A DNA stretch of 64,000 nt from Polyangiales bacterium. GTDB taxonomy: Bacteria > Myxococcota_A > Polyangia > Polyangiales > JADJQN01. Positions 12,271 through 44,174 of this stretch are shown here, one piece after another. The position numbers and the translations under genes were made by a program. The DNA is taken from NCBI GenBank assembly GCA_964202905.1, contig CAXNJO010000010.1, forward strand, positions 32,001 through 96,000. The letters run 5' to 3'. Under the pieces are notes generated by a model. It was not told the DNA's origin, did not search any database, and was given only the letters and a program-made list of their open reading frames with translations. How positions within the stretch are numbered: the first letter of the stretch is position 1; each line of letters opens with the position of its first letter.

Positions 12271-12330
12271 TTGACGGGTCAAACCGTGCGTGTTAATCCC
12301 GGCGCGTGCCGAGCGGTGAATCGCCATTCA
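12271..12330 (+). promoter_or_regulatory. Putative promoter (TTGACG...TGTTAAT) and FadR-type operator TGAATcgccATTCA
   Basis: TTGACG at 12271 (inside palindrome TTGACggGTCAA), TTAAT near 12293, palindrome at 12317-12330 just upstream of the TetR gene. Confidence 0.7.
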
Positions 12331-12356
12331 GTTCGCGGGTCCGCAAGCCGCGCGCT

Positions 12357-13100
12357 GTGTCGTCGACCCCCGAGATCCCCGCGCCCTCCGCCCTTCCGCG
12401 CGCCGACACCAAGGCACGCGCGAAGGCAGCCCCCGAGTCGTCCGAAGCCCCCACCGAGAAGGGCCGCGGCGCAGGCACGCCGGACAAGCGCGAGCGCATC
12501 CTCCGCGCCGCGATCAAGGTCTTCGCGCGGAAGGGCTTCCACGCGACGCGCGTCAACGAGATCGCGAAGGCCGCCGGCGTCGCGGACGGCACCATCTACC
12601 TCTACTTCAAGAACAAGGACGACGTGCTCGTCTGCATCTTCGAGGACCGCATCACGCGTCTCCTCGAGGTGCTGCGCCGCGAGCTCGAGCGCTCGCCGTC
12701 GTTCGAGGAGCGCATGCGCCGGATCGTCGGCCTGCAGCTCGGGCTGCTCGAAGGGCAGCGCGACCTCGCCGAGGTGATCACCGTCAACCTCCGCCAGTCG
12801 TCGAAGCTGCTCAAGCAGTACGCGACCCCCCTCTTCGTCGAGTACCTCGAGGTGCTCGCGAGCGTCATCGCCGACGGGCAGCGCGAGGGCGTCGTCCGCA
12901 CGGACGCGCACCCGCGCATCCTCGCGCGCGCGTTGTTCGGCGCGCTCGACGGAGTCGCGCTCACCTGGGCGCTCGGCGGAGCCGAGCCCGGGACTCTCAC
13001 GAAAGCTGCCGTCCAGATCACGTCCGTGTTCCTCGACGGCATCCGCGTCCGCTCTCCGCAGTCACACGCTCTCTCATCACACTCCCCGGAGGAACCGTGA
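12357..13100 (+). CDS. TetR-family regulator, FadR/YsiA-like (fatty acid degradation)
   Basis: HTH EIAKAAGVADGTIYLYFKNKDDVL closely matches the Bacillus FadR HTH as recalled; coupled to etfBA. Confidence 0.9.
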   Translation: MSSTPEIPAPSALPRADTKARAKAAPESSEAPTEKGRGAGTPDKRERILRAAIKVFARKGFHATRVNEIAKAAGVADGTIYLYFKNKDDVLVCIFEDRITRLLEVLRRELERSPSFEERMRRIVGLQLGLLEGQRDLAEVITVNLRQSSKLLKQYATPLFVEYLEVLASVIADGQREGVVRTDAHPRILARALFGALDGVALTWALGGAEPGTLTKAAVQITSVFLDGIRVRSPQSHALSSHSPEEP

Positions 13101-13930
13101 AGATCCTCGTTCCAGTGAAGCGGGTCGCCGACCCGGACAACGCCAACAAGGTGAAGGTTGCCGCCGACGCCTCGCGCGTCACCACGGACGGCCTCGAGTG
13201 GAAGATCAACCCCTTCGACGAGTACGCCGTCGAAGCGGCGCTGCGCCTCAACGAGAACGCGAAGACGCAGGAGAAGCTCGGCGAGACCATCGTCGTCTCG
13301 ATCGGGCCGAAGGACGCGGCGCAGACGCTGCGCCAGGCGCTCGCGATGGGTGCGGACCGCGCGGTCCACGTGCTCGCCGAGGACGAGCAGCTCGACTCGT
13401 TCGTCGTCGCCCGCGCGCTCAAGGCCATCGTCGACAAGGAGCAGCCCGACGTCGTCGTACTCGGCAAGCAGGCCGTCGACGGCGACTCCAACACCGCGGG
13501 GCAGATCCTCGGTGAGTTGCTCGGCTGGCCGGTCGCGTCGTTCGCGGCGACGATCGAGACGGGCGACGCGGGCAAGAGCTTCGTCGTCGGCCGCGAGGTC
13601 GACACGGGCGTGCTCAAGGTGAAGGTCACCGCGCCCGCCGTCATCACCGTCGACCTGCGCATCGTCGCGCCCGCGTCCGTGCGCAACGGCGCGACGCCCG
13701 CCGATCACGCGTACGGCGAGGGCGCGCGCTACGCCTCGCTCAAGGGCATCATGGCCGCGAAGAAGAAGCCGATCGACGAGCAGACGCTCGCCGCGCTCGG
13801 CGTCGACGCGACGACGACGTCCCGCTACACGAAGTTCGAGCTGCCGCCCGCGCGCAAGGGCGGCGCGAAGTTCGTCGCCGACGTCAACGAGCTCGTCTCG
13901 CTCCTCCAGAGCGAGGCGAAGGTCCTCTGA
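13097..13930 (+). CDS. etfB: Electron transfer flavoprotein beta subunit
   Basis: [60 protein letters not shown]. Confidence 0.96.
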
Positions 13931-13971
13931 GCGTTCGTCCTGCCACCCGAGACAACCGAGGAACACGAACC

Positions 13972-14946
13972 ATGACGGACGTTCTGGTCATCGCAGAGCT
14001 GCTCGACGGCAAGGTGCGCAAGACGACGCACAGCGCCATCACCCTCGCCAAGACGATCGCCGCCGGGACGGGCGGCGCCTTCGACGTCCTCGCCATCGGC
14101 GACGGCGCGAAGTCCGCCGCGGCCGAGCTGACGGGCTTCGGCGCGCGCAAGATCTTCGCCACGCAGATCGACGGGGGCTACCTCGCCGAGAAGTACGCGC
14201 CCACGGTCGCCTCGATCGGCGGCGGTTACGGCGTGCTCACCGTGACCGCGAGCACCTTCGGCAAGGACCTCGCGCCCCGCGTCGCGGCGCGCCTCGGCGC
14301 GGGCGTCGCGAGCGACATCAGCGGCGTCACCGTCGACGGCGGGACGCTCAGCTACAAGCGGCCGATGTACGCGGGCAACGTGTACGGTCACGTGCAGATC
14401 ACGACGGCGACCCAGGTCGTGACGCCGCGTCAGTCGGAGGTCGCGCCTGCGCAGCCCACGGGCGGCGCGAGCCCGATCGAGGACCTCGCCCTGGTGGCGG
14501 GCGGTGCGGCGAGCGGGCGCATCGAGTTCGTCGCGCTCGAGCAGAGCACGAAGTCCGCGCGCCCCGAGCTGAGCGAGGCTGCGACCGTCGTGTCGGGCGG
14601 TCGCGCGCTGAAGAGCGCCGAGGGCTTCCAGACGGTACTCGAGCCGCTCGTCGACGCCTTCGGCGCGGCGATGGGCGCGAGCCGCGCGGCGTGCGACGCG
14701 GGCTACGTGCCCAACGACCTGCAGGTCGGCCAGACGGGCAAGGTCGTCGCCCCGAAGCTCTACGTCGCGGTCGGCATCTCGGGCGCGATCCAGCATCTCG
14801 CGGGCATGAAGGGTTCGAAGGTCATCGTCGCGGTCAACAAGGACAAGGAGGCGCCGATCGCACAGGTCGCCGACTACTTCCTCGTCGCGGACCTGTTCAA
14901 GGTCATCCCCGAACTGACGGACGCGGTCAAGAAGGCGCGCGCCTAG
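13972..14946 (+). CDS. etfA: Electron transfer flavoprotein alpha subunit
   Basis: [47 protein letters not shown]. Confidence 0.97.
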
Positions 14947-14976
14947 CGCTGCGCCGCCGCGCGTCGGCATGCACGG

Positions 14977-15010
14977 AGGGCCCGGCGACCACCTCGCCGG
15001 GCCCTTTTTC
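14977..15010 (+). terminator. Intrinsic terminator after etfA
   Basis: 12-bp stem agggcccggcga / tcgccgggccct followed by a T run. Confidence 0.85.
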
Positions 15011-15247
15011 GTTGATCGCGCAGCGCTTCGCTCGGGCGTTGGGCAGCGGAGTGCGACGACGCGCAGGCAGGCGTGCAGTGCCCTCCGAGGACGTGCCCCG
15101 GCTGGCGCCTCGCCAGCGCGCGCACCGCGACGCGCTCGAGCGCACGGCGCCGGCGGCCGGTGCGGCGGCGCACAGGACGACCGCCGCACGCCCGAGCCAC
15201 GCGCAACAATCGACTTGTCAACGGGCGACCTCTAAGCTGGCGCCGCC

Positions 15248-16786
15248 ATGCGCCCCCACGCGCGTCCGCTCCCCGACTCCGCCGTGCCGCGCGCCGCCGC
15301 GCTCGCGCTCTGCGTCCTCGCATGGGTTGCGCCGGCCCGCGCCGACGGCCCGTACGACGGCGCGTGGCGCGCGAGCGGAACACGCGTCGAGGTGACGATC
15401 CGCAGCTGGGGCGCAGACTGCGGGCCGCGACCGCAGTCGTTCTCGTCGGGCGGCGGCGGCACCGTGCAGATCGCGCAGGAAGGCGATCACCTCGTCTTCC
15501 GCGGCCAACGCACGACACGGACCGACGGTTGCTGGAGCGAGAACCGCGCGGTCCGGCGCGTGTCGACGTCGGTGCAAGGGAGCACGTGGCGCACGGTCTG
15601 CCGCACGCCGCCCGGCGACTCGCGCGGCGAAACCGGTACGTACACGCTGCGCGCGTCGGGCGACGACGCGCTCGCGTTCACGGATTCGAGCGAATACGAC
15701 TGGGCGCTCAACGAGTCGCGCTGCACGGCGACCATCACCACGACGCAGTCCTTCTCCCGCACGCGGGCCGCGACACCGACGCCGCCTCCCCCTCCGCCGC
15801 CCGACGAGCCCGCCGAGCGCGCTTGCACACCGGGCGCCCCCGCGCGGATCGCGATGCGTCCGGAGCGGGCACGCGTGCAGCCGGGCGAGCGTGTCTGCGT
15901 CCGCGCGCGCGTCGTCGATGCGAGCGGCTGCGCGGTCCCGGGCCAGACGATCGCGTGGGACCTCGAACGCCCGGCGGGTCGCGCCGGCACCCTCGACGAC
16001 GGCTGCTTCCAGGCCGGGACGAATGCGGCCGACGCGGAGGGCGAGTTCCGCCTGCAGGCGACGAGCGGCGGGCTGCGCGGCGATGCGGTGCTCACCGTGC
16101 GCGCGCAGGATCTCTCGGACCTGATCGCCCGTCGCGGCGAACAGGGCGCAGTCGGCGTGCTCGCGGGCACCGACGCGACGGCGCGCACCGAGGGCGCGGC
16201 GCGGGTCGAGGCGCGCGCGGTCGATGACGAGGGGGGCTCGCTGCTCCTGCCGCTGGTCGGGGCGGGCGTCGCGCTTCTGCTCCTGCTCGGCGGCGTGGCG
16301 CTGCTGCTCGGCGGCAAGAAGAAGCGGAAGCCGGAGCCCGCGCCGTCGGGCGTCTCCACGCCGTCGGCCGCCCCGCTGCCATCGTCCGCGATCGCGCGAC
16401 CGCCCGCGGCCGCATCGGTCCGCGCGCCAGCCGCTGCAGGCGGGGCGCAGAAGCTGTGCCCGCTGTGCCACCTCGAGGTGGAGGGCGAGACGGCCTTCTG
16501 CCCGCGGGACGGCACGGCGCTCGTGGGCGCGCCGCAAGGGGGCCCGGCGACGCCGTCGCAGGCGCTGATCTGCCCGACCTGCCGCCGCGGCTTCCCGCCC
16601 TCGGCGCGGTTCTGCCCGCACGACTCCGACGAGCTCGTGCCCTACGCGATGTTTGCCGCGCGCTCGAAGGCCCCCACGGGCACCGAGGGCGCCAAGCCGC
16701 AAATCTGCCCCCAATGCGGAGAGCGCTACGACGCGACCACCGCGTTCTGCGGCAAGGACGGCTCGCCACTCGTCACCGTGAACTGA
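15248..16786 (+). CDS. Single-pass membrane protein: Cys-containing extracytoplasmic region, TM helix, three C-terminal zinc ribbons
   Basis: Signal peptide ending [66 protein letters not shown]. Confidence 0.75.
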
Positions 16787-17094
16787 CGGCGCCCGTCGCG
16801 AAGGACCGGGAGCCGCTCGCTGGCATCCGCGAAAGCCGGGGCCCAGCGAGCGCGATCGTGCGCGCGCTACCCAAAGGCACGCCCAGCGGGGGTTCCATGT
16901 CGGCGTGGAGGCATGGGCGTTCGCGGGTGGACGCCCACGCGACGGCTCTTGATCGGCTCGGCGCGGGGCAGCTATGATGCCGCCCCAACGACGGAATCCG
17001 GCGATGCCGCGCCGCTCGCCGCATGCCTCCGGAACGCGTCCGGGAGCCACTCCCATCCCTGCCCGCTGAACTGCACGTCGAGAGGACAAGCGAG

Positions 17095-18887
17095 ATGAAG
17101 ATCGTCTGCGAGAACTGCGGCGCGAAGTACTCGATCGCCGACGAGAAGGTCGCCGGGAAGGTGTTCAAGATCCGCTGCAAGAAGTGCAGCGAGGTCATCG
17201 TGGTACGCGGCGATCAGGGCGACGACGAGTCGACGCGCGTCCTCGACGGCTCGCAGGCCGCGCCCCCGGTCGGCGGCGAGGCCGTGTGGCACATCGTCGT
17301 GAGCGGCGACCAGCAGGGGCCGTTCACGCCCGCGCAGATCAGCGACATGCTCAGCGCCGGGACCGTCGACTGGGAGGCGTACGTCTGGCGCGAGGGCTTC
17401 GACAATTGGCTGCCCGCGCGCGACGTGGAGCCGCTCGTGCAGGCGATCACCGGGGGCGGCGACGCGGGAGGCGGCGCGGCCGCCGGCGCGGCGGGCGACT
17501 TCGGCGCGGACCCGTTCGGCGGAGCGGCCGGTGGCGCCGATCCCTTCGGCGGCGGCGCGTTCGGGGCGGAATCAATCCCGGCGCCCGCGCCCGAGAAGGC
17601 CCCCGCGGCCCGTGCGCCGCGCGCAGGCGGTAGCGATCTCTTCGGCCAGTCGGAGGCGAGCCCGTTCGGCGGTGGCGGCGACGACGACGACGGCGTGGTG
17701 GCCTCGGCCCCGAGCCCGCGTGTCTCGAGTCAGCAGGCGGCGCTCACCGGACAGCGCAACGAGAACTCCGTGCTCTTCTCGCTCGCCAACCTCCAGGCGC
17801 TCGCCACCGGCACGCCGAGCAGCAGCGGGTCGACGGCGGCGCCGTCGAGCAGCGCGCAGCCGAGGGCCGGCATGGCGTCCGGGGAGGGCTCGGGCCTCAT
17901 CGACATCCGCGCTCTCGCGGGGGGCCTCGGGGGCGGGGCATCGGCATCCATGGGCGCAACGCCCGCCAAGAAGGACGCCGTCGACGACCTGCTCTCGATC
18001 GGCTCGGGCGGCTCGCCGTTCGCGCCCACGCTCGGCGCGCCGATGTTGGCGCCCGTCAAGCAGGAGTCCAGCAACAAGGGCCTGATCATCGGCGTGAGCG
18101 TCGGCGTCGCGGCGGTCGTCGCAGCGGCAGCGGTCGTGCTGGTCGTCATGCTCGGGAACAAGAAGGACGACGCGGCGGAGGCGGGGGGCACCCTCGCGCC
18201 GAGCCGCCGGCGGCGCCGGCCACCGTCGCGGCGCCCGCGGCCGCGGCTCCGATCGCACCCGCAGCGCCGCCGGCGGCCGAGCCCGCCGCAGTCGCTGCAC
18301 CGGTCGCGGCCGACACGGTGGCCGCAGCGCCCGCTCCCGCGGACGACGAGCGCAACGGCGCGCGTCGCAGCGGGTCGCGACGCACGGGCGGCGGCGGAGA
18401 GACCGCCGCGGCGCCGAGCGCGCCGACCGCACCGAGCGCACCTTCGGGCGGCGGAGGCGGTGGCGGCGGGGGCGGCAGCGCACCGGCCCCGCGGCGAGCC
18501 GGCGGCGGCGGCGGCGGCGGCAGCATCGACGACCTCCTCGGGCAGGCGCTCGGCGGCGGTGGCCCGGCAGCGCGTCCGGCGGCAAACAGCGGCGGCGGGG
18601 GCGGAGGCAGCGACGCCTCGCTCCCGGAGCAGCCGGGCCGCGATCAGGTGCGTGCAGCGCTCACGGCGGTTCAGGCGGCGGTCACGGCATGTGGCGGCGG
18701 CGAGCACGGCCTCGCGATGACGGCGATCACCGTCGCGGGCTCGAGCGGGCGCGTGACGAACGCGGTCGTCTCCGGCCAGTTCGCCGGCACGCCCGTCGGC
18801 TCCTGCGTGGCCCGCGCCGCGCGCAGCGCACGCTTCCCGCGGTTCCGCAACGACACCTTCTCGGTCAGCTTCCCCTTCCGGCTCTGA
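17095..18887 (+). CDS. AgmX/GltJ-like gliding-motility protein (zinc finger + GYF_2 + TM + TonB-C-like), frameshift near 18190
   Basis: MKIVCENCGAKYSIADEKVAGKVFKIRCKKC; WHIVVSGDQQGPF...YVWREGFDNW; GQRNENSVLFSL; C-terminus GTPVGSCVARAARSARFPRF..FPFRL lies in another frame (18318-18887). Confidence 0.8.
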
Positions 18888-18976
18888 CCACGGCGGGGCG
18901 CACGCGACCGGCGTCGCGCCCCGACCTCCGCGCACGGCCGTCCACCGACGGCCCCGACTCCCCCGGACGCCGCCCC

Positions 18977-19705
18977 TCAAGGGCGGCGTCGGCGTTTCGT
19001 GCGCAGCCCGATGGCACCCAGCACGAGCAGCGCGACGCCAGCGAGTGCGCCCGCGATCACGCGCCCATCGAGCGGCGCCTCCGGCGTGCGGAGCGCCGCG
19101 CTGAACACGCGCCCGGCGGGGGGCGCGAAGTCCCGCCCGAAACTCAGCGCCGGCTCGAGATCGCGCGGCGACTCGCCCATCCCGGCGCGCAGCAGCTCGG
19201 CGCCGTCCCGCGCCTGAAACACGACGTCCGTGCGCTCGAAGCGCCCGACGTCCATGGCGTCACGGATCTGCAGGACGTGCTCGCCGCCCGGCAACGGAAT
19301 GTGCGCGACCCGCTCGACCGTGACCGGCTGCGCCGCGATCGGCCCGATCGGCTCGAGCACACCGTCCCGCCAGACGATCCCCTCCGCGGCCGCGCCGTCG
19401 ATCTCCACCCGGAGTTCGCGCGCGAGCTCGGCGCCCCACCCTGCGAGGTAGGCGTCGGCCTCGGCGCGGGAGAGCGCGCCGTCGCCGTCCGTGTCCGCCG
19501 GCTCGAGGGCGAGGCGCGTCTCGGACGGACCGAGCATCAACGAGACCACTATGCGCACCTCGCCCGGCGCGGCGTCCACCTTGAGGTAGCGCTCCGCGCG
19601 GAGGACGAGGTGGCCGAGGTGTGCCTGCGCGCGCGTGGGCGCGCCGAGCGTGAGCGGGATCGCGAGAGCGGCGAGCGCGCCCCCCCGCAGCCCCGCGCGG
19701 GTCAT
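18977..19705 (-). CDS. Exported hypothetical protein with EF-hand-like loop and C-terminal TM
   Basis: Signal peptide AQA-H, DTDGDGALSRAE, C-terminal hydrophobic helix then KRRRR; overlaps pepA stop. Confidence 0.6.
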   Translation of the reverse strand: MTRAGLRGGALAALAIPLTLGAPTRAQAHLGHLVLRAERYLKVDAAPGEVRIVVSLMLGPSETRLALEPADTDGDGALSRAEADAYLAGWGAELARELRVEIDGAAAEGIVWRDGVLEPIGPIAAQPVTVERVAHIPLPGGEHVLQIRDAMDVGRFERTDVVFQARDGAELLRAGMGESPRDLEPALSFGRDFAPPAGRVFSAALRTPEAPLDGRVIAGALAGVALLVLGAIGLRTKRRRRP

Positions 19706-21177: not shown

Positions 21178-21441
21178 GTTCCTCCGGGGAGCGCGCGCTG
21201 CGGATGCCTTCGCTCGCCTCGGCGCGGCTGCCGGGCGTCGGGCCGGGCGCATCCTGCCACGCGCGCGCGGCGCGGGACAAGCCTCGTCAACGCCGCCGGC
21301 GGGCCGACGGCGGCCGCCAGCGGCGCCGCCATGTCCGGCGCGCAAGTCCGCGAACCCACGTGGTCGCGCGGCGGCACGCGCCCTGCTCGAGGCCTCTGCA
21401 CGAGCGACCGCGATGACCGCGGCGCGACACGGGAGGACTCG

Positions 21442-31231: not shown

Positions 31232-32122
31232 TCAGCGGCGGCGAAGACCGAGCAGCGTGAGCGGCTCGTCGGAGCGCGCGAAGGAGAGCGTCGCGCCCAT
31301 CTCGACGTTGACCGCGGCGTGCGGCCCGTCGAGGAAGAGCCGCGCCGCGCGCATCTTGCTCACGACGCGCAACGTGTCGTCGGGCGCGACCAGGCCGCGC
31401 ATGTGGCGGTAGCGGCGGCCATCCGCGAGGTAGGGCTCGCGCACGACGAACTGCAGACGCTGCGAGCCCACGGGGAGCACGCGCCCGCCCGCCGAGCGCT
31501 GCGCGGCCGTCGAGCCCGCCGCGGGGCCGACCCACAGGCCGCTCGAGCGCTGCTCCTCCTCGACGCCCGCGAAGCGAAGCAGGTAGCGCGAGGTCGCGGC
31601 CGGACACTCGTGGCAGAAGAGCGCGTCGTTGAGCACGCGGTTCGAGACCTCGGCGCCGTCGAGCTCGACGCGCATCCGCGTGAGGCGCGTCGCGCGGACG
31701 CGACCCGCGAGCGCGTCCGCGAGCACGTCGCCGAGCACGTCGCGCGTGCCGGCGCAGAAGAAGCCGACGCTGTCGCGCGGGGCGGTGTTCACGGCGATCA
31801 CGGGCACGTCGGGGCCGACCGCGTGCGACGCCCAGAGCAGCGTGCCGTCACCGCCGAGCGTCACGACGAGATCGAAGCCCTCCGCCGCGCCCACCTCCGC
31901 GCGGTAGCGGAAGACGGCGCGGGCGCCGAGCGCGCGGAGCAGCGCGCGCGCCGCCACGACCGTGCCGACGTGATCCTCGTGCGCGGCGCGGAGCCGCGCG
32001 ACGGTGACGTGGCGCTCGCGGAGCAACGCGGCGACCCGCGCCGAACGCCGCTCGCGCACGTAGATCTGAAACGCGGACTTCTTGTAGATGACGAGGACGC
32101 GCGGGCCGGTGCGGCGCGTCAC
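31232..32122 (-). CDS. nadK: NAD(+) kinase
   Basis: TLGGDGTLL, VLNDALF, SSGLWVGPAAGSTAAQRSAGG. Confidence 0.88.
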   Translation of the reverse strand: MTRRTGPRVLVIYKKSAFQIYVRERRSARVAALLRERHVTVARLRAAHEDHVGTVVAARALLRALGARAVFRYRAEVGAAEGFDLVVTLGGDGTLLWASHAVGPDVPVIAVNTAPRDSVGFFCAGTRDVLGDVLADALAGRVRATRLTRMRVELDGAEVSNRVLNDALFCHECPAATSRYLLRFAGVEEEQRSSGLWVGPAAGSTAAQRSAGGRVLPVGSQRLQFVVREPYLADGRRYRHMRGLVAPDDTLRVVSKMRAARLFLDGPHAAVNVEMGATLSFARSDEPLTLLGLRRR

Positions 32123-32811
32123 GGCGTCACGCTCCGCTCGGCGAGGCGGCGCAGCGCGACCTCGGTCTTGACGTCCGCGACGCGCCCGTCGCGCACGGCC
32201 GCGAGCGCGGCGGCGAGCGGGACGAAACACACGACCGCGTCGGCCTCGACCGGCGAGCCGTCCTCGGTGGGCGTGCCGGCCGCGCCCGGATCGACGTGCG
32301 CGACGAGGAAGTGGACCTTCTCGGCGAGCACGCCCGGGCTGAGCACCACCGCGGGGCCGAGCGCACTGAATGACGATTCAGCGACGTCGAGGCCCGTCTC
32401 TTCGAGCGTCTCGCGCGCCGCGCAGGCGCGGAGCCCCGCTTCGCCCCGCTCCTCGGGCTCGACGAGCCCCGCGGGCACCTCCCACACGACGGCGTGGGGC
32501 GACGGCTCCGCGAGCGGGAGCGCGTACCCCGGCCGAAACGCGAGCGGGGGTCGCAGCGCGCTGCGCAGGCACACGCGCGGCGCCTCGCCCGGGCCCCCCG
32601 GCGCGACGAGCACGATCGCGACGGCGTCCATCGCGTCGCGCTCGACGAGGTCGTAGCGGTAGGGGCGGCTGAGCGCGCCGTCGGGGCGCCGATTCTGCAG
32701 CGTCACGCGGCGCAGGCGGAGAAACCCCTCGTCCCCGCGCAGCGACCCGGAGTGATCCGCGAGCACGTCGACGTCGATGCGCGGGAGATCGGGGAGGGAA
32801 TCATCAGACAT
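32119..32811 (-). CDS. NUDIX hydrolase (ADP-ribose pyrophosphatase-like)
   Basis: WEVPAGLVEPEE...CAARETLEETGL Nudix box, SPGVLAEK, DVKTE. Confidence 0.88.
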   Translation of the reverse strand: MSDDSLPDLPRIDVDVLADHSGSLRGDEGFLRLRRVTLQNRRPDGALSRPYRYDLVERDAMDAVAIVLVAPGGPGEAPRVCLRSALRPPLAFRPGYALPLAEPSPHAVVWEVPAGLVEPEERGEAGLRACAARETLEETGLDVAESSFSALGPAVVLSPGVLAEKVHFLVAHVDPGAAGTPTEDGSPVEADAVVCFVPLAAALAAVRDGRVADVKTEVALRRLAERSVTP

Positions 32812-32821
32812 GGTGTCGGTC

Positions 32822-33763: not shown

Positions 33764-35128
33764 ATGACGCCCCGCTGCGCGCACGCCCCGCTCGCCCTGC
33801 TGGTCGGCCTCGCCGCCGCGCTGTGTTCGACCCGCGCGCACGCGCAGGCCGCGGCCCCCGTCGAGGCCGCGGAGTCCGCGCGGCTCTCGACGCTCTCCGG
33901 CGCCGACCGCGCCGCGCTCGCCCCGCTGCTCGCGCGCGGCCCCGTCGCGCTCGTCGAGTTCACCGAAGGCGACGCGCTCCCCGCGATCCTGCTCGCCGCG
34001 GAGGTCGACGCGCCCGCGGCCACGCTCGCCGCGGTCGTCGGGGATCCGGCGGGCTATCCGCGCTTCATGGGCGTGCTCGACTCGGTCGCGGTCACCGGAC
34101 GGCACGGCGGCTCGCTCTCCTACGACTGGACGTGGCGGACCGCGATCTTCGAGCTGCGCGGCTCGAACGTGATGACCCGCGCCGAGCCGCCGCCCGGGCA
34201 CCCCGAGCGTGGCTGGCGCTTCGGCATCCGCGCGACGGGTGGCGATCTCGGCACGGGGCGCTTCCTCTGGAGCGTCCTGCCCGTCGACGACACGCACAGC
34301 CTCGTGACCCTCGCGACGCGCCTCGACCTGCGCGACGCGAACTACCTCGCGCGGCAGATGTCGCAGGCGAGCAAGAGCGTGAACCGCTCGATCAACCTCT
34401 CGCTCGGCTTCGTGATGCTGCTCGGCGCGCGGCACGAGGCGCAGCGCCTCGCCGGTCACGCGCCCACGCGCGCGCACCGACCCGGCGACGCCCTGCCCGC
34501 GAGCGGGGTCGACCTCGATCGGCTCGCGCCGCTGCTCGCGCGCGGCGACCTCGTCGCGCTCACGCTCGACGGCGACGCCCTCGACCACGTCACCGCGATC
34601 GCGCGGACGGGCACGGCGCGCGACGTCGTCACCCCCGTCGTGACCGACCCGCGCGCGTTCGGCAGCGCGCTGATGCCCGGCAGCCAGGCGAGCGTGGTCG
34701 GCGTCGACGAGCCCGGAGATTGCGCGCCCGGCGCCGCAGACGCGCGCTGCGCCGCCCGCGGGACGCTCTTCGACTGGTCGATCGACATCCCGATCATCGG
34801 CACGCAGGGGCGCATGCGACTCACGCCCGCGGACGACGCCGGCGACGTCGTCGAGGTCGCCGGCGTGAGCGGCGCGCTGCACACGGGCCGCTGGCGGATC
34901 GAGACGCGGACGCAGCCGTGGGGCGAGGCCGTGGTCACCGCGGTCGGCCGCTTTGATCCGGGCGACACGACCTGGCTGCTCCGCGGCGTGGTGCGGAGCA
35001 GCGCGGACTTCGGCGCGGGGCTCGCCGCGGCCTCGGAGCTCATGCTCGTCCGCGCGATCCGCGCCCGCGCGATCGACGCGCAAGAGGCCCGGATCGCGGC
35101 CGCGAGCGCCGCCGTGATCGCGCAGTGA
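33764..35128 (+). CDS. Exported protein with tandem SRPBCC/START-like domains
   Basis: Signal peptide AHA-Q; two repeats (VDAPAATLAAVVGDPAGYPRFM; VVTPVVTDPRAFGSALMPG). Confidence 0.6.
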   Translation: MTPRCAHAPLALLVGLAAALCSTRAHAQAAAPVEAAESARLSTLSGADRAALAPLLARGPVALVEFTEGDALPAILLAAEVDAPAATLAAVVGDPAGYPRFMGVLDSVAVTGRHGGSLSYDWTWRTAIFELRGSNVMTRAEPPPGHPERGWRFGIRATGGDLGTGRFLWSVLPVDDTHSLVTLATRLDLRDANYLARQMSQASKSVNRSINLSLGFVMLLGARHEAQRLAGHAPTRAHRPGDALPASGVDLDRLAPLLARGDLVALTLDGDALDHVTAIARTGTARDVVTPVVTDPRAFGSALMPGSQASVVGVDEPGDCAPGAADARCAARGTLFDWSIDIPIIGTQGRMRLTPADDAGDVVEVAGVSGALHTGRWRIETRTQPWGEAVVTAVGRFDPGDTTWLLRGVVRSSADFGAGLAAASELMLVRAIRARAIDAQEARIAAASAAVIAQ

Positions 35129-35318
35129 GCGGCGCGCGGGGCGGCGCGCTGAATGGCCATTCATCGCGCGCGCGTCGAGCGGCACGCGGCGGGTCGTGTT
35201 CGTCGGCGCGGACGCGACGAGCGAACCGCACGCTCGTGGCCCCGGACGCGCGCTCGTCAGGGTCGCAGGCTGCGCGGCGCAGTCAGGGCGCGCGGCGCAG
35301 TCAGGGCGCGCGCCTCCG

Positions 35319-36365
35319 TCAGAACGTGAGGTGCGCCGAGACGCCGCCGCCGCTCGGCCCGACGACCGGGGCGATGCGGAGGCGCGCCGTCGTCGCTGCG
35401 GCCTCGCCGGCCGACGCGTCCTCGTCCTCCTCGTCGCCGGAGGCGAGCTGGAGCACGAGCGCGGTCACGAGCCCCGCGATGGCCACGCCGAAGCCCACGT
35501 CCGCGAAGAGCGCCAAGCGCTCGCCGCGGTCCGCGATCGCCTCGCTCGGCGCGGCGTCGAAGTCGCTCTGCTCCGAGAGCGCGAGGAAGCCGAGCACGGT
35601 GCCGGCGACGAGCCCGCCCGCGCCGACACCCGCCGCGATCCACACGCCCGCGCCCGGCCCCTCGGACTCCGCCTCCTCCGCCGCGGGCGGCGCGACGGGC
35701 TCCGGCTCAGCGGGCGTCTCCTCCACCGGCGGCGCCGCCGGACGAGCCGTGAGCGCGGGCACCGCGAGCTCCTGCCGCGCGCCGAAGCCGACGGTCACGG
35801 TCTGCGACGCGGGCTCGTAGCCTTCGAGGGAGAGCACGATCGTGTGCTCCCCCGGGGCGGCGTCGACGTCGGCGGGCGTCACACGCCCGGTGTCCGTCCC
35901 GTCGAGGCGGATCGCGGCGCCGGCGGGCTCGCTGCTCACGGCGACGACGCCCGGGCGCGTGCGCAGCTGGTCGATGCGGGCCTGCACCGCGGCGCGGTCC
36001 GGCGCGTCGGCGCGCAGCGAGAGGTAGCGCTCGAGCGTCGCGACGGTGTCGACGATGCGCCCGAGGCGCTCCTGGGACTCGGCGATGCTGATGAGCACGA
36101 CGGGGTTCGGCACGCTCGCGAACGCGGCCTCGAAGCGGGCGAGCGACTCGGCAAACTTGCCCTCGCGGAACAGCGTCTGCCCTTCGCCGTAGGCTGCGCG
36201 GGCGGCCGTCGTCTGCTCGGCCGTGGGGCCCGCAGGCGCCGCCGTGCGACCACCACGGCGTTGCGCCTCCGCGCGCGACGCGCCCAGCAGCGCCGACGCG
36301 GCGAACATGGCCGCAACCACCCAAACCATCCCGCGAGACCCCGAGCTGCGAAGCACGCCGTTCAT
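35319..36365 (-). CDS. TPR + PEGA domain exported protein
   Basis: Signal peptide, TPR helices, PEGA VSSEPAGAAIRLDG..GRVTP...PGEHTIVLSLEGY, terminal Phe. Confidence 0.85.
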   Translation of the reverse strand: MNGVLRSSGSRGMVWVVAAMFAASALLGASRAEAQRRGGRTAAPAGPTAEQTTAARAAYGEGQTLFREGKFAESLARFEAAFASVPNPVVLISIAESQERLGRIVDTVATLERYLSLRADAPDRAAVQARIDQLRTRPGVVAVSSEPAGAAIRLDGTDTGRVTPADVDAAPGEHTIVLSLEGYEPASQTVTVGFGARQELAVPALTARPAAPPVEETPAEPEPVAPPAAEEAESEGPGAGVWIAAGVGAGGLVAGTVLGFLALSEQSDFDAAPSEAIADRGERLALFADVGFGVAIAGLVTALVLQLASGDEEDEDASAGEAAATTARLRIAPVVGPSGGGVSAHLTF

Positions 36366-36436
36366 GCGCAGGACCGTACGCGCGCCGCCCGAGGTCCGTC
36401 AACGGGCGCGCACACGAACACGCCCCGGGATATCGC

Positions 36437-38428: not shown

Positions 38429-38501
38429 CGGGGTCGAGAGATTAGCCCCCCGCAGCCCGCACAGGAAGCACAACCCGCGCGACGACGCGATCCGCGCGCG
38501 C

Positions 38502-38957
38502 TCAGGCGCCGGCGTCGCCGGCGTCAGGCTCCGACGACGCATCGACGTCACCCGGGGGGCCGGCGTCCTCGCCGAGATCGGGCGCCGCGCCGAGGTCGAT
38601 CGCGCCCGCGTCCGGCGCCGCGGCGTCCTCGCCGAGATCGACGGAAATCGAGAGGTCGCTCGGATCGCCCGCGTCCTCCGGGCCCACGCCCTGATCGCCA
38701 GGGCCCGCGTCCGAGACGCCGAGGTCGCGCGGCCCGGCATCGACCGCGAGGCAGCTGACGGCGCACACGCCGCGATCGGTGAGGCTCGCGCTGCCCTTGC
38801 AGCAGAGGAGACCGGTCTCGCAGTCGCTGTCGAGCTGGCAGACGGCGCCCGCGGCGCCCTCGCACGAGGCGAGGCCGAGCAGGGCGAGGGCGGCGAGCGC
38901 CCACGCGTGGAAGGCCGGGAGGGAGCGCGGGCGGGGCATCGAGGAGTTCCGGGTCAT
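38502..38957 (-). CDS. Cys-rich lipoprotein with acidic DAG/DLG tail
   Basis: Lipobox LGLASC, CQLDSDCETGLLCC...C...C, DAG repeats typical of myxobacterial lipoproteins. Confidence 0.65.
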   Translation of the reverse strand: MTRNSSMPRPRSLPAFHAWALAALALLGLASCEGAAGAVCQLDSDCETGLLCCKGSASLTDRGVCAVSCLAVDAGPRDLGVSDAGPGDQGVGPEDAGDPSDLSISVDLGEDAAAPDAGAIDLGAAPDLGEDAGPPGDVDASSEPDAGDAGA

Positions 38958-39871
38958 CGGGCGGGCGGACGATAGCCCCGGCTCCCGGGCGTGTCGATCC
39001 GCGCGCCGTCGCGCAGGTCGTATGCGCAACGGAAGCCGATGTCGGCCTCGCGCACCCCCTCGGGCGCGGCCGCGCGTGCGGCGCCACGGAGCGCGAACGG
39101 CAGCGTGCGGTACGAGCCGCCCCGCACCACGCGCAGGGCCCCGCCCTCCGGCCCGCGGGGATCGACGCCCGGAGAGCGCGCGTAGTAGTCGGGGGCGAAC
39201 CAGTCGGCGACCCACTCGGCCGCGTTGCCGGCGAGGTCGAGCACGCCCTCGTCGCTCGCGCCGTCCGGGTACGCGCCGACCGGCGCGAGCAGCGCGTACA
39301 CGTCGCCCGACACGCGCGCGGCCGACGCGAGGCGCCCGACGTTCGCGAGGCGCGCATCCCACCCGTCGCCCCACGGGAACGCGCGGCGTGACGCCCGACC
39401 GCGCGCGGCGCGCTCCCACTCGGCCTCGGTGGGCAGGCGTCCCCCGACGAACGCGCAGTACGTGCGCGCCTCGGCGTGCGACACGCCGACGACCGGGAGC
39501 GCCGCGCCAGCGAGCCGCGGGTCGCCGTCCCCGAAGCGCGAGGGCACGCACGCGCCCGCGGCGACGCAGCGCACGTACGCGGCCTGCGTCACCTCCACGC
39601 GGTCGAGGCCGAACGCCGCGACGCGCACCCGGTGCGCGGGCTGCTCCGCGGCGAAGAGCCCGTCCACGCAGCGCGCCGCGGCGCCCTGCCCGCCGAGCGT
39701 GCGCCGGCAGAGCCGCACGGCGTCGTCGACCTCGTCCGTCGTGCTGCCCATCCAGCGCTCGCCCGCGCCGATCCGCACGATCGCGGCGCGTCGGACGATG
39801 CGCGGTGTCGTCCCCGCCGCGAGGAGCGGACCGAGCACGAGCGCGAGCAGGACGACACGGAGACGGGACAC
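38954..39871 (-). CDS. Formylglycine-generating enzyme (SUMF1/FGE-sulfatase) domain protein
   Basis: EQPAHRV, LDRVEVTQ, RLPTEAEWERAARG, DLAGNAAEW, VRGGSY, IGFRCA. Confidence 0.9.
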   Translation of the reverse strand: MSRLRVVLLALVLGPLLAAGTTPRIVRRAAIVRIGAGERWMGSTTDEVDDAVRLCRRTLGGQGAAARCVDGLFAAEQPAHRVRVAAFGLDRVEVTQAAYVRCVAAGACVPSRFGDGDPRLAGAALPVVGVSHAEARTYCAFVGGRLPTEAEWERAARGRASRRAFPWGDGWDARLANVGRLASAARVSGDVYALLAPVGAYPDGASDEGVLDLAGNAAEWVADWFAPDYYARSPGVDPRGPEGGALRVVRGGSYRTLPFALRGAARAAAPEGVREADIGFRCAYDLRDGARIDTPGSRGYRPPAR

Positions 39872-39975
39872 GCAGCGCCGAGCCTAGCAACGCGCGCGAC
39901 CGCGCACGCGGCCGCCGCGGTGCCACGCCGCGTCGATGCTGCACGGACCGGACGCGTCGAGGCGCTCAGGGGCGC

Positions 39976-40746
39976 TCAGCGGCGCACGTGGTGCCGCGCG
40001 AGCCACAGCCCCGCGCCGAGCGCGACGCACACGCCGAGCCCCTGCGACGTCGAGACGCCGTGCGCGACGCCGCGCACGACATCGCCGCGCAGCGGCTCGA
40101 GCCCGACGCGCAACACACCGTACAGCAGCGCGTAGCGCGCCAGCGCGTCCCCCGCGCGCGCCGGCTCGCGACCGCGCGCTCCCCACGCCGCGACGGCCGC
40201 GGCGACGAGCAACAGCGCGCCAGCCTCGTAGAGCGGCCATGCGTGGCGCGGCACCGCCGGATGCGCCCCGGGCGCGCGCGGGTCGGTGTAGGTGATCGCG
40301 AGCGGGCCGTCCCACGGCGCGCCAAAGCAACACCCGCCGAGCAGGCAGCCCACCCGCCCGATCGCGTGGCCGAGCGGCAGCGCGGGGGCCGCGCAGTCGG
40401 CGAGGGTCGTCACCGGCAGCCCGAGCGCGCGCGCCGCGAGCGCGAGCGACACGCCCCCGCCCAGCAGTCCGCCGAGGAAGACGCGCCCGCCGCGCTCGAC
40501 GGCGACGAGCCAGTCCCCCGAGCGGAACACCTCGACCGCGACGAAGAGCAGCCACGCCCCTGCGAGCGCGCCTGCGACGCCGAGCGCGAGCGCGGCCGTC
40601 ACCCGCCCGACATCGAGCCCCGCGCGCACCGCGCGCCGCACGAAGACCGCACCGCCGACGAGCAGCGCGAGCGCGAGGAGCACGCCGTACGCGCCGACCG
40701 GGCGCACGCCGCCGGGCACCGGAACCTCGAACAAGATCGGGTGCAC
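39976..40746 (-). CDS. lgt: Prolipoprotein diacylglyceryl transferase
   Basis: HPILFE, YGVLLAL, GGRVFLGGLLGG, GHAIGRVGCLLGGCCFG, PLYE, EPLRGD, STSQ. Confidence 0.88.
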   Translation of the reverse strand: MHPILFEVPVPGGVRPVGAYGVLLALALLVGGAVFVRRAVRAGLDVGRVTAALALGVAGALAGAWLLFVAVEVFRSGDWLVAVERGGRVFLGGLLGGGVSLALAARALGLPVTTLADCAAPALPLGHAIGRVGCLLGGCCFGAPWDGPLAITYTDPRAPGAHPAVPRHAWPLYEAGALLLVAAAVAAWGARGREPARAGDALARYALLYGVLRVGLEPLRGDVVRGVAHGVSTSQGLGVCVALGAGLWLARHHVRR

Positions 40747-40747
40747 G

Positions 40748-41311
40748 TCAGCGCGGCGCGGACGGGGGCGCAGGCGCGGGGGGCGCGATCGGCGGGGGCG
40801 GGAACGCGGGCGGCGGCGGCCCCCCCGTCGGCCCATCCGCGGCAGGCGGCGCAGCGGCAGGCGGCGCATCGGGGCTGGGCGGTGCGTCCGGCGCAGGCGG
40901 CGCAGCGGGGAGCGGCGGCAGGAGACCGACGCCGCCGTCGCCGCGCACGAGCCAGGGCGGCGGCCGCCCGCTGCCGACGCTCCAGGAGACCCCGCCGTCG
41001 CCGCGGTGCCGTGGGCCCGCGACCATGCCCGCCGTGCAGAGCGCGTTGCAGAGCCCGCACGTGAGGGCGAACACCAACCCCAGCAAGAAGGCGACGATCG
41101 AGGTGATCAGGCCCGCGAGGCCCGCGCCGCCCGTCCCGCCCTCCTGCTTCGAGCGCGACATCGCGAGGCCGCCGAGCACGGCGCCGGCGAGCGCGACGAC
41201 GGGCGCACCGAACGAGAGCACGCTCCCGACGCCGGGCAGCCACGTCAGCACGATGCCGCCGAACATCATCAGCAGCGCGAGCACCCCGAGCACGATCGAG
41301 CCGACGCCCAT
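40748..41311 (-). CDS. Small multi-pass membrane protein with Pro-rich C-terminus (DUF4190-like)
   Basis: GSIVLGVLAL, three TMs, CGLC. Confidence 0.55.
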   Translation of the reverse strand: MGVGSIVLGVLALLMMFGGIVLTWLPGVGSVLSFGAPVVALAGAVLGGLAMSRSKQEGGTGGAGLAGLITSIVAFLLGLVFALTCGLCNALCTAGMVAGPRHRGDGGVSWSVGSGRPPPWLVRGDGGVGLLPPLPAAPPAPDAPPSPDAPPAAAPPAADGPTGGPPPPAFPPPPIAPPAPAPPSAPR

Positions 41312-41384
41312 CGGCCGCAGCGTCCCACCCGCGCCGAGCGCGTCAAGAGGCGCGGTCCGCCGCGCCTGCTACGCTCGCGCCCCC

Positions 41385-42602
41385 ATGCCGACGCCCCCCG
41401 CCGAGAGAGGTCGCCGAGCGCGCCCCACCAAGCCGAGCGACGAGCCGCTGCGCGGAGGCCGCTGCGCCATCGTCGGTCGCCCGAACGTCGGCAAGTCGAC
41501 GCTGCTCAACACGCTGCTCGGGCAGAAACTCGCCATCGTCGCGAGCAAGCCGCAGACGACGCGCACGCACATCCTCGGCGTGTACCTCTCGGAAGACCCG
41601 CCGACGCAGCTCGCGCTCCTCGACACGCCGGGGCTGCACCGCCCGAAGAACGCGCTCGGCCGCGCGCTCGTCGAGTCCGCGAAGGGCGCGCTCGACGGCG
41701 CGGACGTCGTGCTGATGTTGGTCGAGGTCCCCGCCCGCTTCGAGTCGGGCACGCCCGCGGCCCCGAGCCCCGCGGACCTCGAGGTGCTCGCCACCGTGAA
41801 GGCCGCCGGCCGCCCGACGGTGTTGGCGATCAACAAGATCGACCGCCTCCCCCGCAAGGAAGCGCTCTTCCCATTGCTGGAGCTCTGGGCGACGCAGCAC
41901 GACTTCGCGGCGCTCGTGCCGATCTCGGCGCGGAGCGGGGACAACCTCGAGGCGCTCGTGAAGGTGCTGCGCCCGCACCTGCCGGAGGGCAGGCTCTACG
42001 AGGACGACGACTTCGTCACCGACCGGCCGGAGCGCTTCTTCGTCGCCGAGCTCGTGCGGGAGCAGGTCATCCAGAAGACCCGGCAGGAGGTCCCGCACTC
42101 GGTGGCGGTGCTCATCGAGGGCTTCTCCGACGAGGGCAGCCTCGTGCGGATCGACGCGACCGTCATCGTCGAGAAGGACTCGCAGAAGAAGATCGTGATC
42201 GGCGCGGGCGGCTCGATGCTGAAGGCGATCGGCACGGGCGCGCGCATCGGGATCGAGCGGATGCTCGGCAAGCAGGTGATGCTGCGGCTCTGGGTGAAGG
42301 TCGTCGCCGGCTGGACGGACGTCGAGTCGCGCGTGCGCGATGTGCTCCGCAGCGACGCCGTCTCGGGCTCGGCGACGCGGGCCGAGAAGACGCGCGGCGA
42401 GAAGCCCCGCGCGAAGAACCCGCCCCCGCGCGGCGAGAAGACCCGCGCGAAGAACCCGCCTCCGCGCGGCGACGAGACGCACCCCGAGAAACCAGCCACG
42501 CGCGGCGAGCCGACGCGCACGAAGACTCCCCCTGCGCGCGGAGACAAGACGCGCCCCGAGAACCCAGCCACGCGCGGCGCACGCGCCGGAAGGCCGTCGT
42601 GA
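41385..42602 (+). CDS. era: GTPase Era with basic repetitive C-terminal extension
   Basis: GRPNVGKSTLLN, KPQTTR, DTPG, NKID, EVPHS, KKIVIGAGG, LRLWVKV. Confidence 0.96.
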   Translation: MPTPPAERGRRARPTKPSDEPLRGGRCAIVGRPNVGKSTLLNTLLGQKLAIVASKPQTTRTHILGVYLSEDPPTQLALLDTPGLHRPKNALGRALVESAKGALDGADVVLMLVEVPARFESGTPAAPSPADLEVLATVKAAGRPTVLAINKIDRLPRKEALFPLLELWATQHDFAALVPISARSGDNLEALVKVLRPHLPEGRLYEDDDFVTDRPERFFVAELVREQVIQKTRQEVPHSVAVLIEGFSDEGSLVRIDATVIVEKDSQKKIVIGAGGSMLKAIGTGARIGIERMLGKQVMLRLWVKVVAGWTDVESRVRDVLRSDAVSGSATRAEKTRGEKPRAKNPPPRGEKTRAKNPPPRGDETHPEKPATRGEPTRTKTPPARGDKTRPENPATRGARAGRPS

Positions 42603-44116
42603 CCCGCAAGCGCCATCGTCGTACGGAAGAGCAGGAAGCCGCACTCACGGCGGTCGAGCAGGAGGCTGCGCTCGCCGCGGGCACCGAGCCCACGGAGGCC
42701 CCGGACCCGCGCAGCGTCGCGCGGGCCTCCCGCGGGCAGCGTCGCCGCACGCTCGGGCCGCTGCCGGCGGGCGCGGTGTTCGCGCGGCCCCTCGTCGCGA
42801 TCGTGGGTCGCCCCAACGTCGGCAAGAGCACCCTCTTCAACCGCCTCGCGGGGCGGCGGCTCGCGATCGTCGAGGACACGCCGGGCGTCACGCGCGACCG
42901 GCACTACGCCGACACGCTCATGTACGGACGCGAAATCGTCCTCGTCGACACGGGTGGCTTCGACCCCGAGAGCGACGACCCGATGATGGGCAGCATCGCG
43001 CGGCAGGTGCGGCTCGCGCTCGCCGAGTGCGATCTCGTCGTGTGCGTGCTCGACGCCTCGGTCGAGCCGCAGACCGCGGATCGCGAGGCCGTGCGGCTGC
43101 TCCGCGAGAGCCGCAAGCCCGTGATCTTCGTCGCGAACAAGAGCGACACGCCGCGCCTCGCGCTCGAGGCGAACAGCTACTACCGCCTCGGCGTCGAGAC
43201 GCTCATCCCCGTCTCGGCGCTGCACGGCCACGGCACCGGCGACCTCGAGCAGGCCGTGCTCGACGCGCTGCCGCCCGCCGAGGCGCTCGCCACGCTGCCG
43301 CGCCTCGACGGCGTCGCGCGCGTCGCGATCACGGGCAAGCCCAACGCCGGCAAGTCGTCCCTCGTCAACCGGCTGCTCGGGCAGGAGCGCCAGATCGTCG
43401 ACGACCGCCCCGGCACGACGGTCGACGCCGTCGACGCGCTCCTCGAGCGCGACGGCCGCCGCCTGGTGCTCATCGACACCGCCGGGATCCGCCGCAAGAG
43501 CCACGTCGACGAGAGCGTCGAATCGCTCGCGGTGCTGCAGGCGATCCGCTCGATGGAGCGCAGCGACCTCGTCGTGCTGCTGCTCGACGCGAGCGTCGGC
43601 GTCGCCGAGCAGGACGCGAAGATCATCGGCCTCGCCGAAGACCGCGGCCGCGCGATCGTGATCGCGCTCAACAAGTGCGACCTCCTCGACGACGCCGCGC
43701 AGCGCCAGGCCACGACGCGCGCCCGCGACGTGCTCGCCTTCGTGCCGTGGGCCCCGCTGCTGCGGATCAGCGCGCGCTCGGGGCGCGGCGTGAAGAAATT
43801 CCTCACCGCGATCGAGGCCGCCGTCGAGGCGCACGGCAAGCGCATCACGACCGCGCAGCTGAACCGCTTCTTCGAGGAGGTGCTCGACCGGCACCCGCCC
43901 CCGGTCCATCGCGGCAAGCCCGTGCGGCTCTACTACGTCACGCAGACGCAGGTCTCGCCGCCGACGTTCACGATCATCGCGAACTACCCGGACGCGGTGC
44001 ACTTCTCGTATCAGCGCTACGTCGTGAACCAGATCCGCGCGGCGTTCGGCTTCGAGGGCACCCCGGTGCGCGTGTTCTACAAGCCGCGGCGTCGGCGCGA
44101 GGGCAGCCAGGGCTGA
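42599..44116 (+). CDS. der: Ribosome biogenesis GTPase Der (EngA)
   Basis: Two G domains (GRPNVGKSTLFNRL/PGVTRD/DTGG; GKPNAGKSSLVN/DTAGIR/NKCD), FGFEGTPVR. Confidence 0.97.
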   Translation: MTRKRHRRTEEQEAALTAVEQEAALAAGTEPTEAPDPRSVARASRGQRRRTLGPLPAGAVFARPLVAIVGRPNVGKSTLFNRLAGRRLAIVEDTPGVTRDRHYADTLMYGREIVLVDTGGFDPESDDPMMGSIARQVRLALAECDLVVCVLDASVEPQTADREAVRLLRESRKPVIFVANKSDTPRLALEANSYYRLGVETLIPVSALHGHGTGDLEQAVLDALPPAEALATLPRLDGVARVAITGKPNAGKSSLVNRLLGQERQIVDDRPGTTVDAVDALLERDGRRLVLIDTAGIRRKSHVDESVESLAVLQAIRSMERSDLVVLLLDASVGVAEQDAKIIGLAEDRGRAIVIALNKCDLLDDAAQRQATTRARDVLAFVPWAPLLRISARSGRGVKKFLTAIEAAVEAHGKRITTAQLNRFFEEVLDRHPPPVHRGKPVRLYYVTQTQVSPPTFTIIANYPDAVHFSYQRYVVNQIRAAFGFEGTPVRVFYKPRRRREGSQG

Positions 44117-44174
44117 ACCGTCATTCAGCGCGCGGCGCACACGGCGCGGCGCGTGTCCGGGGCGGTCGCGCCGA

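Follow-up and report, generated by a model that had tools for sequence, protein, structure and literature searches.

Binding sites of bacterial repressors that lie outside promoters are usually taken as tolerated noise. Here we analyse a palindrome, TGAAT-N4-ATTCA, that occurs four times in a 64,000-nucleotide stretch of DNA from a Polyangiales bacterium (the window; positions 32,001 to 96,000 of contig C10 of the genome that we designate G000), and that an original prediction, made from the letters of the window alone, had assigned to the FadR-like TetR-family repressor encoded there, with a possible second function in chromosome organization or as a roadblock. The closest described system is FadR (YsiA) of Bacillus subtilis and Bacillus halodurans, which has the box WTGAATGAMTANTCATTCAN (PMC5397183, PDB 5GPC) and, as far as that account goes, the same unit site: each dimer of the B. 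halodurans protein occupies an inverted repeat of 16 bp that has 4 bp at its centre and ATGA(A/G)T as its half-site. Like Bacillus FadR as portrayed there, the system of the window appears to be autoregulated and linked to etfBA and acyl-CoA dehydrogenases. Unlike it, mostly one strong dimer site is present, with weak flanks shifted by 4 bp and often located within a leaderless fadR gene, and more than 90% of the copies lie off promoters. Two other systems are comparable in their non-promoter sites: those of Escherichia coli RutR (PMC2475637), a metabolite-sensing repressor with most sites inside genes, as here, and the inert sites of PhoB (10.1101/2023.02.07.527549); site-by-site non-conservation is common to both and to our case. 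However, the RutR and PhoB sites, in the parts of those reports that bear on this, are imperfect matches, read as chance or relics, with a similar density across relatives, whereas the copies described here are perfect, exceed the background 75 to 400 times and vary 20-fold between congeners. Searches of the open literature gave no paper that treats this operator in Myxococcota or describes a proliferation of this kind. A known kind of operator here shows an apparently undescribed behaviour, which is real, selected or driven, and repeated in evolution.

The window features concerned are the following.

12271..12299, + strand: sigma70-like promoter of fadR-etfBA (TTGACG, 17 bp, TAATCC), a consensus match only.
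12306..13100, + strand: FadR, of the TetR family with a YsiA-like C-terminus (Pfam TetR_N and TetR_C_4), probably leaderless from GTG 12306.
12317..12330, unstranded: FadR operator TGAATCGCCATTCA, putatively the ancestral autoregulatory one, which encodes G-E-S-P-F-S in the frame of FadR (orthologue comparison).
13097..14946, + strand: etfB (13097-13930) and etfA (13972-14946), predicted co-transcribed targets (Pfam ETF and ETF_alpha).
32367..32380, unstranded: lineage-specific operator copy within a NUDIX gene (32119-32811, - strand), of in-register origin by substitutions.
35150..35163, unstranded: lineage-specific operator copy in the gap between convergent genes (33764-35128 on the + strand, 35319-36308 on the - strand; gene positions and orthologue comparison).
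44114..44127, unstranded: lineage-specific operator copy that begins with the stop codon (TGA) of der; it lies in a convergent gap, opposite a glutaredoxin-like gene (orthologue comparison).

All four copies were recovered exactly where they had been reported and with the same sequences, against 0.06 matches expected from 100 dinucleotide shuffles of the window. The first had been placed in a promoter. It is indeed at the 5' end of fadR, but it lies past the -10 element and probably falls within codons 4-9 of a gene that is leaderless: GTG 12306 follows the predicted -10 by 6 nt, a layout (start codon 5-9 nt past the -10) that was found in 16 of 78 fadR orthologues, and in 34 of the orthologues the operator stands in frame directly after a start codon, as in the window. 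A seemingly leaderless fadR with its own operator in codons 4-9 (peptide E-S/R-P-F-S) was observed in about half of the orthologues. The gene positions bear out that the 35150 and 44114 copies lie between convergent gene ends, the former 21 bp past the stop of the + strand gene and facing a - strand PEGA-domain gene, the latter on the stop of der, whose identity follows from a TIGR03594 score above the cut-off. The 32367 copy is read in the NUDIX frame as GCT GAA TCG TCA TTC AGT, with the rare codons GCT, TCA and AGT (2%, 1.6% and 1.6% of their codon families). The spacer, given originally as GRCS, has the genome-wide form S-R-Y-S (mostly G-R-Y-G), and the flanks R-M- and -K-Y are conserved. 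The copies in the NUDIX gene, at der and at 35150 showed no sign of being conserved: they are missing from three, four and four relatives, respectively. In the same-genus NUDIX orthologue the site reads D-A-S-A-F-S, with three mismatches to the motif and no indel; the der stop position is common to G000 and its congener G001, and the 44114 copy is missing in four der orthologues; the 35150 copy was not found after the orthologous gene in G001, G002, G045 and G113.

Several lines of evidence indicate that FadR is the cognate protein of the palindrome, as originally proposed. Firstly, the best Protein Data Bank matches of the window FadR are the B. subtilis and B. halodurans FadR proteins (E 1e-33 to 1e-32), and in the alignment to their solved structures the recognition helix AGVADGTIYLYF is the same; it includes the equivalents of Gly42 and Tyr45, residues named in PMC5397183. 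The YsiA-like C-terminal domain PF08359 scores 59.6 bits against a cut-off of 21, and NCBIfam FadR (NF053878) is the best of 20 families at 159.9 bits, which is below its cut-off of 200. In the acyl-CoA pocket, with residue numbering transferred by alignment, the arginine of LRQ is kept and the equivalent of Arg117 is a lysine. The geometry of the motif equals that of the solved FadR-DNA complex, a 16-bp inverted repeat with a 4-bp centre. Secondly, an operator copy lies at most 250 bp upstream of the helix-turn-helix region in 70 of the 78 fadR orthologues (80 loci, two of them too short), and in 25/28 of a smaller set. Thirdly, 12 of 15 sites sampled in four relatives precede fadR-etf, acyl-CoA dehydrogenase, SCP2/CoA-transferase, carboxyltransferase or 4Fe-4S protein genes; the remaining three precede genes for a hydrolase, an OPT transporter and ExbB. 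Fourthly, the copy number tracks FadR in our survey of 251 genomes of the order (a further 201 came from the phylum; kin among them are not independent), with a median of 7 in the 165 FadR-bearing genomes versus 1.5 (maximum 10) in the 86 without a FadR match, and within one family 5 copies with FadR versus 1 without. Judged from these comparisons of sequence, it is very likely that in Polyangiales a Bacillus-type FadR that senses acyl-CoA binds the palindrome as its operator, with one dimer per site. We are equally confident in the predicted targets, which are fadR-etfBA, acyl-CoA dehydrogenases, an SCP2/CoA-transferase operon, a carboxyltransferase and a 4Fe-4S oxidoreductase.

LexA, which the original prediction had named because of the likeness to its box (given as CTRHAMRYBYGTTCAGS for myxobacteria in PMC9705874), is excluded as the user of the sites because no copy of the motif adjoins lexA or either of the two recA genes. 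A paralogue with a FadR-like helix-turn-helix was considered as another binder; none is present in G000, where the best other match is 42%.

The copy number in G000 (5.68 Mb, 73% G+C, 19 contigs) is far above that usual in FadR-bearing genomes. There are 57 perfect TGAAT-N4-ATTCA sequences, versus 0-3 for 11 other spacer lengths, and 138 copies of the genome-wide pattern TGAAYS-NN-SRTTCA (M1), versus 0-18 for six other spacers, with the consensus R-M-TGAATGRYGRTTCA-K-Y. They are spread over 14 contigs, and the six smallest contigs together hold one copy. About 10 of them, recognised by likeness to the scanned genes, precede acyl-CoA genes and represent the ancestral regulon. The number 138 is the highest among the genomes of the order; the same-genus genome G001, which is 80% complete, has 8 copies and a FadR that is 88% identical. 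Other high counts are 98 in G057, 77 in G111, 47 in G034, 35 each in G018, G078 and G154, 33 in G050 and 27 in G106; outside the class, 338 were found in G392 and 28 in G331, both of which have FadR. The copy number across lineages forms a continuum, and the expansions to 98 and 338 copies are independent of that in G000. No FadR substitution common to the expanded lineages was seen among 28 sequences inspected by eye. In some genomes, counts of 15-22 are too high because they include another motif, TGAACGATCGTTCA (8 of 21 in G045 and 5 of 19 in G113), so these two genomes are not counted as expansions; the inflation was examined in G045 and G113, and G108, G175, G225 and G211 were left out. 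This other motif has 5-8 dispersed copies per genome in G045, G113 and G154, one of which adjoins a TetR-like gene. In G392, four tandem FadR operators with a 15-bp period lie upstream of fadR (C1:431994-432052), and degenerate repeats of 134-136 bp and 656 bp at C1:5.2-8.0 kb contain the operator.

Most of the copies are located off promoters and exceed a codon-aware background, as had been supposed: 28 coding copies were counted against 0.15-0.4 expected, and 104 non-coding copies against 0.25 (codon-aware and Markov backgrounds). Exact copies exceed a synonymous shuffle 75-fold in genes and a Markov model about 400-fold between genes, copies with one mismatch exceed background 3-4-fold, and those with two mismatches are at about 1-fold. 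Comparison with G001 (1.86 of its 5.3 Mb) shows how they arose. All 5 coding and all 13 stop-codon copies that have an orthologue are missing in G001, and in 7 of those 13 the position of the stop is common to both genomes. When M1 is taken together with three other palindromes described below (M2, M3 and M5), 34 coding copies have an orthologue in G001, and all 34 are missing there, 33 of them in gap-free alignments, and the substitutions that made them are of every type. One M1 coding copy arose through four synonymous changes, all to rarer codons. Amino acids changed at 10 of 28 residues in M1 sites versus 8 of 70 in the flanks, and at 56 of 135 versus 78 of 308 for M2. The flanks neither pair above shuffled controls (14 of 15 positions) nor have any stretch of 12 bp or more in common among 135 copies, so that neither a hairpin nor a mobile element accounts for the copies; there is no A+T excess around the sites either.

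The expansion is not limited to the FadR operator. An unbiased dyad scan of G000 revealed further palindromes in strong excess; the sample of G001 showed nothing comparable. At least four further operator-like palindromes have about 27-117 copies each in G000. M2 (RCCATC-N6-GATGGY) has 117 copies versus 1-19 in 35 other genomes, 97 of them coding versus about 5.5 expected. M3 (AGAAT-N3-ATTCT) has 35 versus 0-4 in other genomes, M5 (TGACGC-N3-GCGTCA) has 31 versus 0-8, with 9 of 33 on stops, and M6 (ACAGCCAGCCGGCTGGCTGT) has 41 overlapping matches versus 0 in the 35 other genomes. One copy of M6 lies in the window.

55772..55787, unstranded: copy of another expanded palindrome (M6, ACAGCCAGCCGGCTGG), in a convergent gap, 19 bp past a stop.

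This locus and about 26 others lie just past stops, with half-sites shifted by 4 bp as in a TetR dimer-of-dimers site. M2 is found genome-wide (e.g. C1:30120, C3 and C7) and frequently reads T-I-x-x-D-G. These four motifs are unexpanded in other FadR-expanded genomes, and in 392 kb of G392 the FadR motif alone emerged from the dyad scan. Their form suggests that they are operators; their cognate proteins were not found by a motif search upstream of 10 TetR genes or among neighbours. Operators upstream of four other TetRs of G000 have 1, 3, 5 and about 15 copies. Because several motifs are expanded alike, we regard the phenomenon as a genome-wide proliferation of operators, not as moonlighting of FadR. 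It is very probable, from the orthologue comparisons, that point substitutions created about 128 extra copies in situ and that these have been kept perfect, within a proliferation of at least five operator-like palindromes, and just as probable that they sit where a bound protein would not block initiation. Three further repeats were noted in G000. An A+T-rich non-coding stretch (C1:662.7-663.0k) contains repeated TTTCAGAAT...ATTCTGAA units and is possibly the ancestral target of M3. Six arrays of 5-8 AACTCSGAGTT each, with a period of ~42 bp (C2:781.8k, C4:581.3k, C7:1.9k, C8, C10:about 2.6k and C18), are iteron- or centromere-like, several of them near contig ends. GTGGGAC-N7-GTCCCAC palindromes occur at C15:34920, C15:37599, C7:129665 and C7:222171, one beside a WYL-like gene (by eye) and the others in convergent gaps.

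The placement of the copies was classified with 4364 genes from a hexamer-based caller, so that the classes are possibly wrong at a few sites. A stop codon provides the TGA of 54 of the 138 copies (32 convergent, 22 co-oriented); of the others, 32 are in coding DNA, and the gaps between genes hold 16 (convergent), 27 (co-oriented) and 9 (divergent). Hence 48 lie between convergent genes. The overlap with stops is largely a matter of opportunity, because the TGA comes free. Per TGA opportunity, convergent stops are nevertheless used 2.2 times as often as co-oriented ones (p 0.007), and convergent gaps 3.6 times as often as divergent gaps (p 0.002). For six motifs pooled, the densities per 100 kb are 57.6 in convergent, 17.3 in co-oriented and 7.0 in divergent gaps; for the three motifs free of TGA they are 15.8, 4.4 and 2.1. 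Tandem operator arrays begin at stops in convergent gaps both in G000 and in G392. In 392 kb of the latter, 31 copies are divided into 13 convergent, 10 coding, 8 co-oriented and 0 divergent, 7 are on stops, and some sit in arrays with a 15-bp period; in G057 and G154, 5 of 16 sampled copies are on stops, one being the motif TGAACGATCGTTCA. The sense strand of the stop-codon copies in G000 reads TGAAYC in 44 of 57, which avoids ATG right after the stop.

What the extra copies are used for is a separate question. Ribosomes can assist RNA polymerase in reading through protein roadblocks, and Mfd releases polymerase stalled at them. Bound factors past or within genes stop polymerase at Reb1 and Rap1 sites in yeast and at intragenic roadblocks of CodY and CcpA, the latter with Mfd. 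Unlike those cases, a genome-wide stand-in for Rho would here have been built from ordinary repressor operators. In such a mechanism, the bound repressor would stall RNA polymerase that has no trailing ribosome, whether it reads through past a stop or transcribes antisense, and Mfd would then release the polymerase. Polymerase coupled to a ribosome would push through, for which reason sites at stops and in essential genes such as der would be tolerated. Rho was not found in G000 by hidden Markov model (HMM) search or tblastn, which gave only ATPase-domain matches at about 30%; U-tracts occur within 80 nt of 93 of 4364 stops (about 2%); and Mfd is present in G000 and was found in 27 of 28 genomes searched. 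Together with the eight-fold preference of the six motifs for convergent over divergent gaps, this favours termination by roadblocks. The roadblock, an alternative of the original prediction, accordingly stays our leading mechanism, but it stays an inference: we hold the use of the extra copies as Mfd-assisted protein roadblocks to be possible, though somewhat short of probable. More doubtful, judged from the genomes compared, is the wider notion that Rho-less or Rho-poor Myxococcota lineages may have recruited the operators of several ordinary metabolite-sensing repressors at once, in hundreds of copies, as roadblocks distributed over gene ends and gene interiors against untranslated polymerase.

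Several observations weigh against the roadblock mechanism. Rho was not found by HMM in 220 of the 251 genomes of the order, being found in two families only, and most of these 220 are unexpanded, whereas G034, G018, G085 and G331 bear Rho and yet are expanded; loss of Rho is therefore neither necessary nor sufficient. In family f16, 5 of 9 genomes without Rho and 3 of 21 with it have 20 or more copies (p 0.03); of the former five, four belong to one genus. Any of the six motifs is present in only 80 of 720 convergent gaps, which leaves 89% without a site. Coding copies are not biased to the last genes of co-oriented runs (58/150 vs 34.6%, p 0.30) and barely to the 3' halves of genes. Hairpins are no weaker in site-bearing gaps when masking is matched (p 0.17); a signal of weaker hairpins there (p 0.0007) vanished on matching. 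Such gaps also have fewer perfect stems (0/63 vs 23/440, p 0.10) and fewer T-runs (2/63 vs 46/440, p 0.07), neither difference being significant. Low constraint alone also yields convergent enrichment, it would be odd for a terminator to open on acyl-CoA, and a single TetR dimer is a weak block. It was also observed that the Rho of the family of G392, G304 and G371 is divergent (424-482 bits against a cut-off of 509).

Two location-blind explanations fit the placement-independent data equally well and are close rivals. According to the first, which we consider rather unlikely, the copies would spread by molecular drive without benefit to the cell: a tightly bound allele would resist overwriting during homologous recombination or gene conversion, and unbound near-matches would be replaceable, so that sites of long-residence repressors ratchet up where they are harmless, in the manner of the Haemophilus and Neisseria uptake sequences. 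Several unrelated motifs expanded in one genome, Poisson spacing (coefficient of variation 1.01 for 339 loci), coding copies uniform along genes, gains that cost rare codons and amino-acid changes, and the continuum of copy number over lineages are all consistent with drive. We know of no such recipient-side drive for bacterial repressors, the operators of the other G000 TetRs are hardly expanded, and the lack of an A+T excess leaves no mark of a repair shadow. The parallel with uptake sequences (USS/DUS; PMC2817400) is that, by that account, these build up by substitution within coding sequence, where residues are variable, and at gene ends; here too perfect copies outnumber near-misses and accumulated by substitution. 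Unlike them, the element here is a palindromic repressor operator, several motifs are expanded together, copies are 10-fold fewer and no uptake receptor is implied.

According to the second explanation, which we regard as a shade less plausible, the sites would be adaptive irrespective of location, either as decoys that titrate repressors or as nucleoid-associated anchors making GalR-like chromosome contacts. The sites avoid promoters and are kept perfect, and tandem arrays are a cheap way of adding sites. The non-regulatory sites of GalR (PMC5110547) provide a precedent in that, as presented there, a metabolic repressor has extra sites proposed to shape the chromosome; unlike for GalR, no FadR tetramer or bridging is known, and the runaway copy number is lineage-specific. 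Autoregulation of FadR buffers the free repressor, which argues against decoys, and the two B. halodurans FadR dimers make no mutual contact in the structure as described (PMC5397183), so that bridging is without structural basis. Moreover, the spacing is no more even than random, and the excess of convergent over co-oriented stops is not predicted by this explanation itself.

The remaining explanations are far less probable. That FadR moonlights like SlmA or RefZ, an idea of the original prediction, and so serves nucleoid occlusion or chromosome capture is very unlikely. SlmA, also of the TetR family, has tens of dispersed sites (52 peaks, none in promoters) that are absent from the terminus (ter) region, as far as the data in PMC3020112 extend, and more than 50 non-promoter sites are likewise found here. 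However, neither ter exclusion nor an SlmA family match is seen, and FadR keeps its normal regulon. In G000, C1 carries dnaA and parS near 447-483 kb, and a dif-like site was assigned at C4:232 kb from its resemblance to the consensus and from a switch in skew. With C9 joined to C4 via an exact 91-bp overlap, 8 copies lie within 200 kb of it (9.7 expected) and 16 within 360 kb (17.5 expected), the nearest at 12 and 22 kb, so that the density equals the genome mean; in G392, 4 copies are no more than 102 kb from a dif-like site. Such a role would be in keeping with a slight surplus of copies around parS (within 400 kb, 29 vs 19.4) and with the heterogeneity among contigs (p 0.06). SlmA is not among the 20 NCBIfam matches of FadR (E 0.001), RefZ scores 47 bits against 180 and would be expected to have few sites confined to the origin flanks, not 138 on 14 contigs, the unexpanded congener has a FadR 88% identical, and other motifs behave alike. 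Nor is it at all likely that FadR uses the copies to control a true regulon of much increased size or antisense promoters that are hidden. The co-oriented and divergent gap copies (27 and 9), together with the ancestral targets, are in line with a regulon, but neighbouring genes are functionally unrelated, divergent gaps are depleted, and TTGAC occurs within 80 bp in 0 of 48 convergent copies, versus 10% of all stops. Least credible is a hairpin like those of repetitive extragenic palindromes (REP) or bacterial interspersed mosaic elements, or the footprint of a mobile element: the preference for gene ends and convergent gaps and the degenerate G392 arrays agree with it, but a C.A mismatch in 15 of 57 sense-strand stop copies, the unpaired and unshared flanks and the in-register origin (33/34 gap-free) do not.

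The gain of sites against codon bias and protein sequence, repeated for FadR in separate lineages and for several motifs in one genome, points to some force in favour of protein-bound DNA as such. Whichever force acts, it can be tested directly in two congeners that carry 8 and 138 copies of the operator and whose repressors are 88% identical. The analysis defines the FadR regulon of Polyangiales and, at the same time, implies that regulon prediction from motifs fails in genomes of this kind. If the roadblock reading is true, transcription termination in these bacteria would be tied to acyl-CoA and other ligands.

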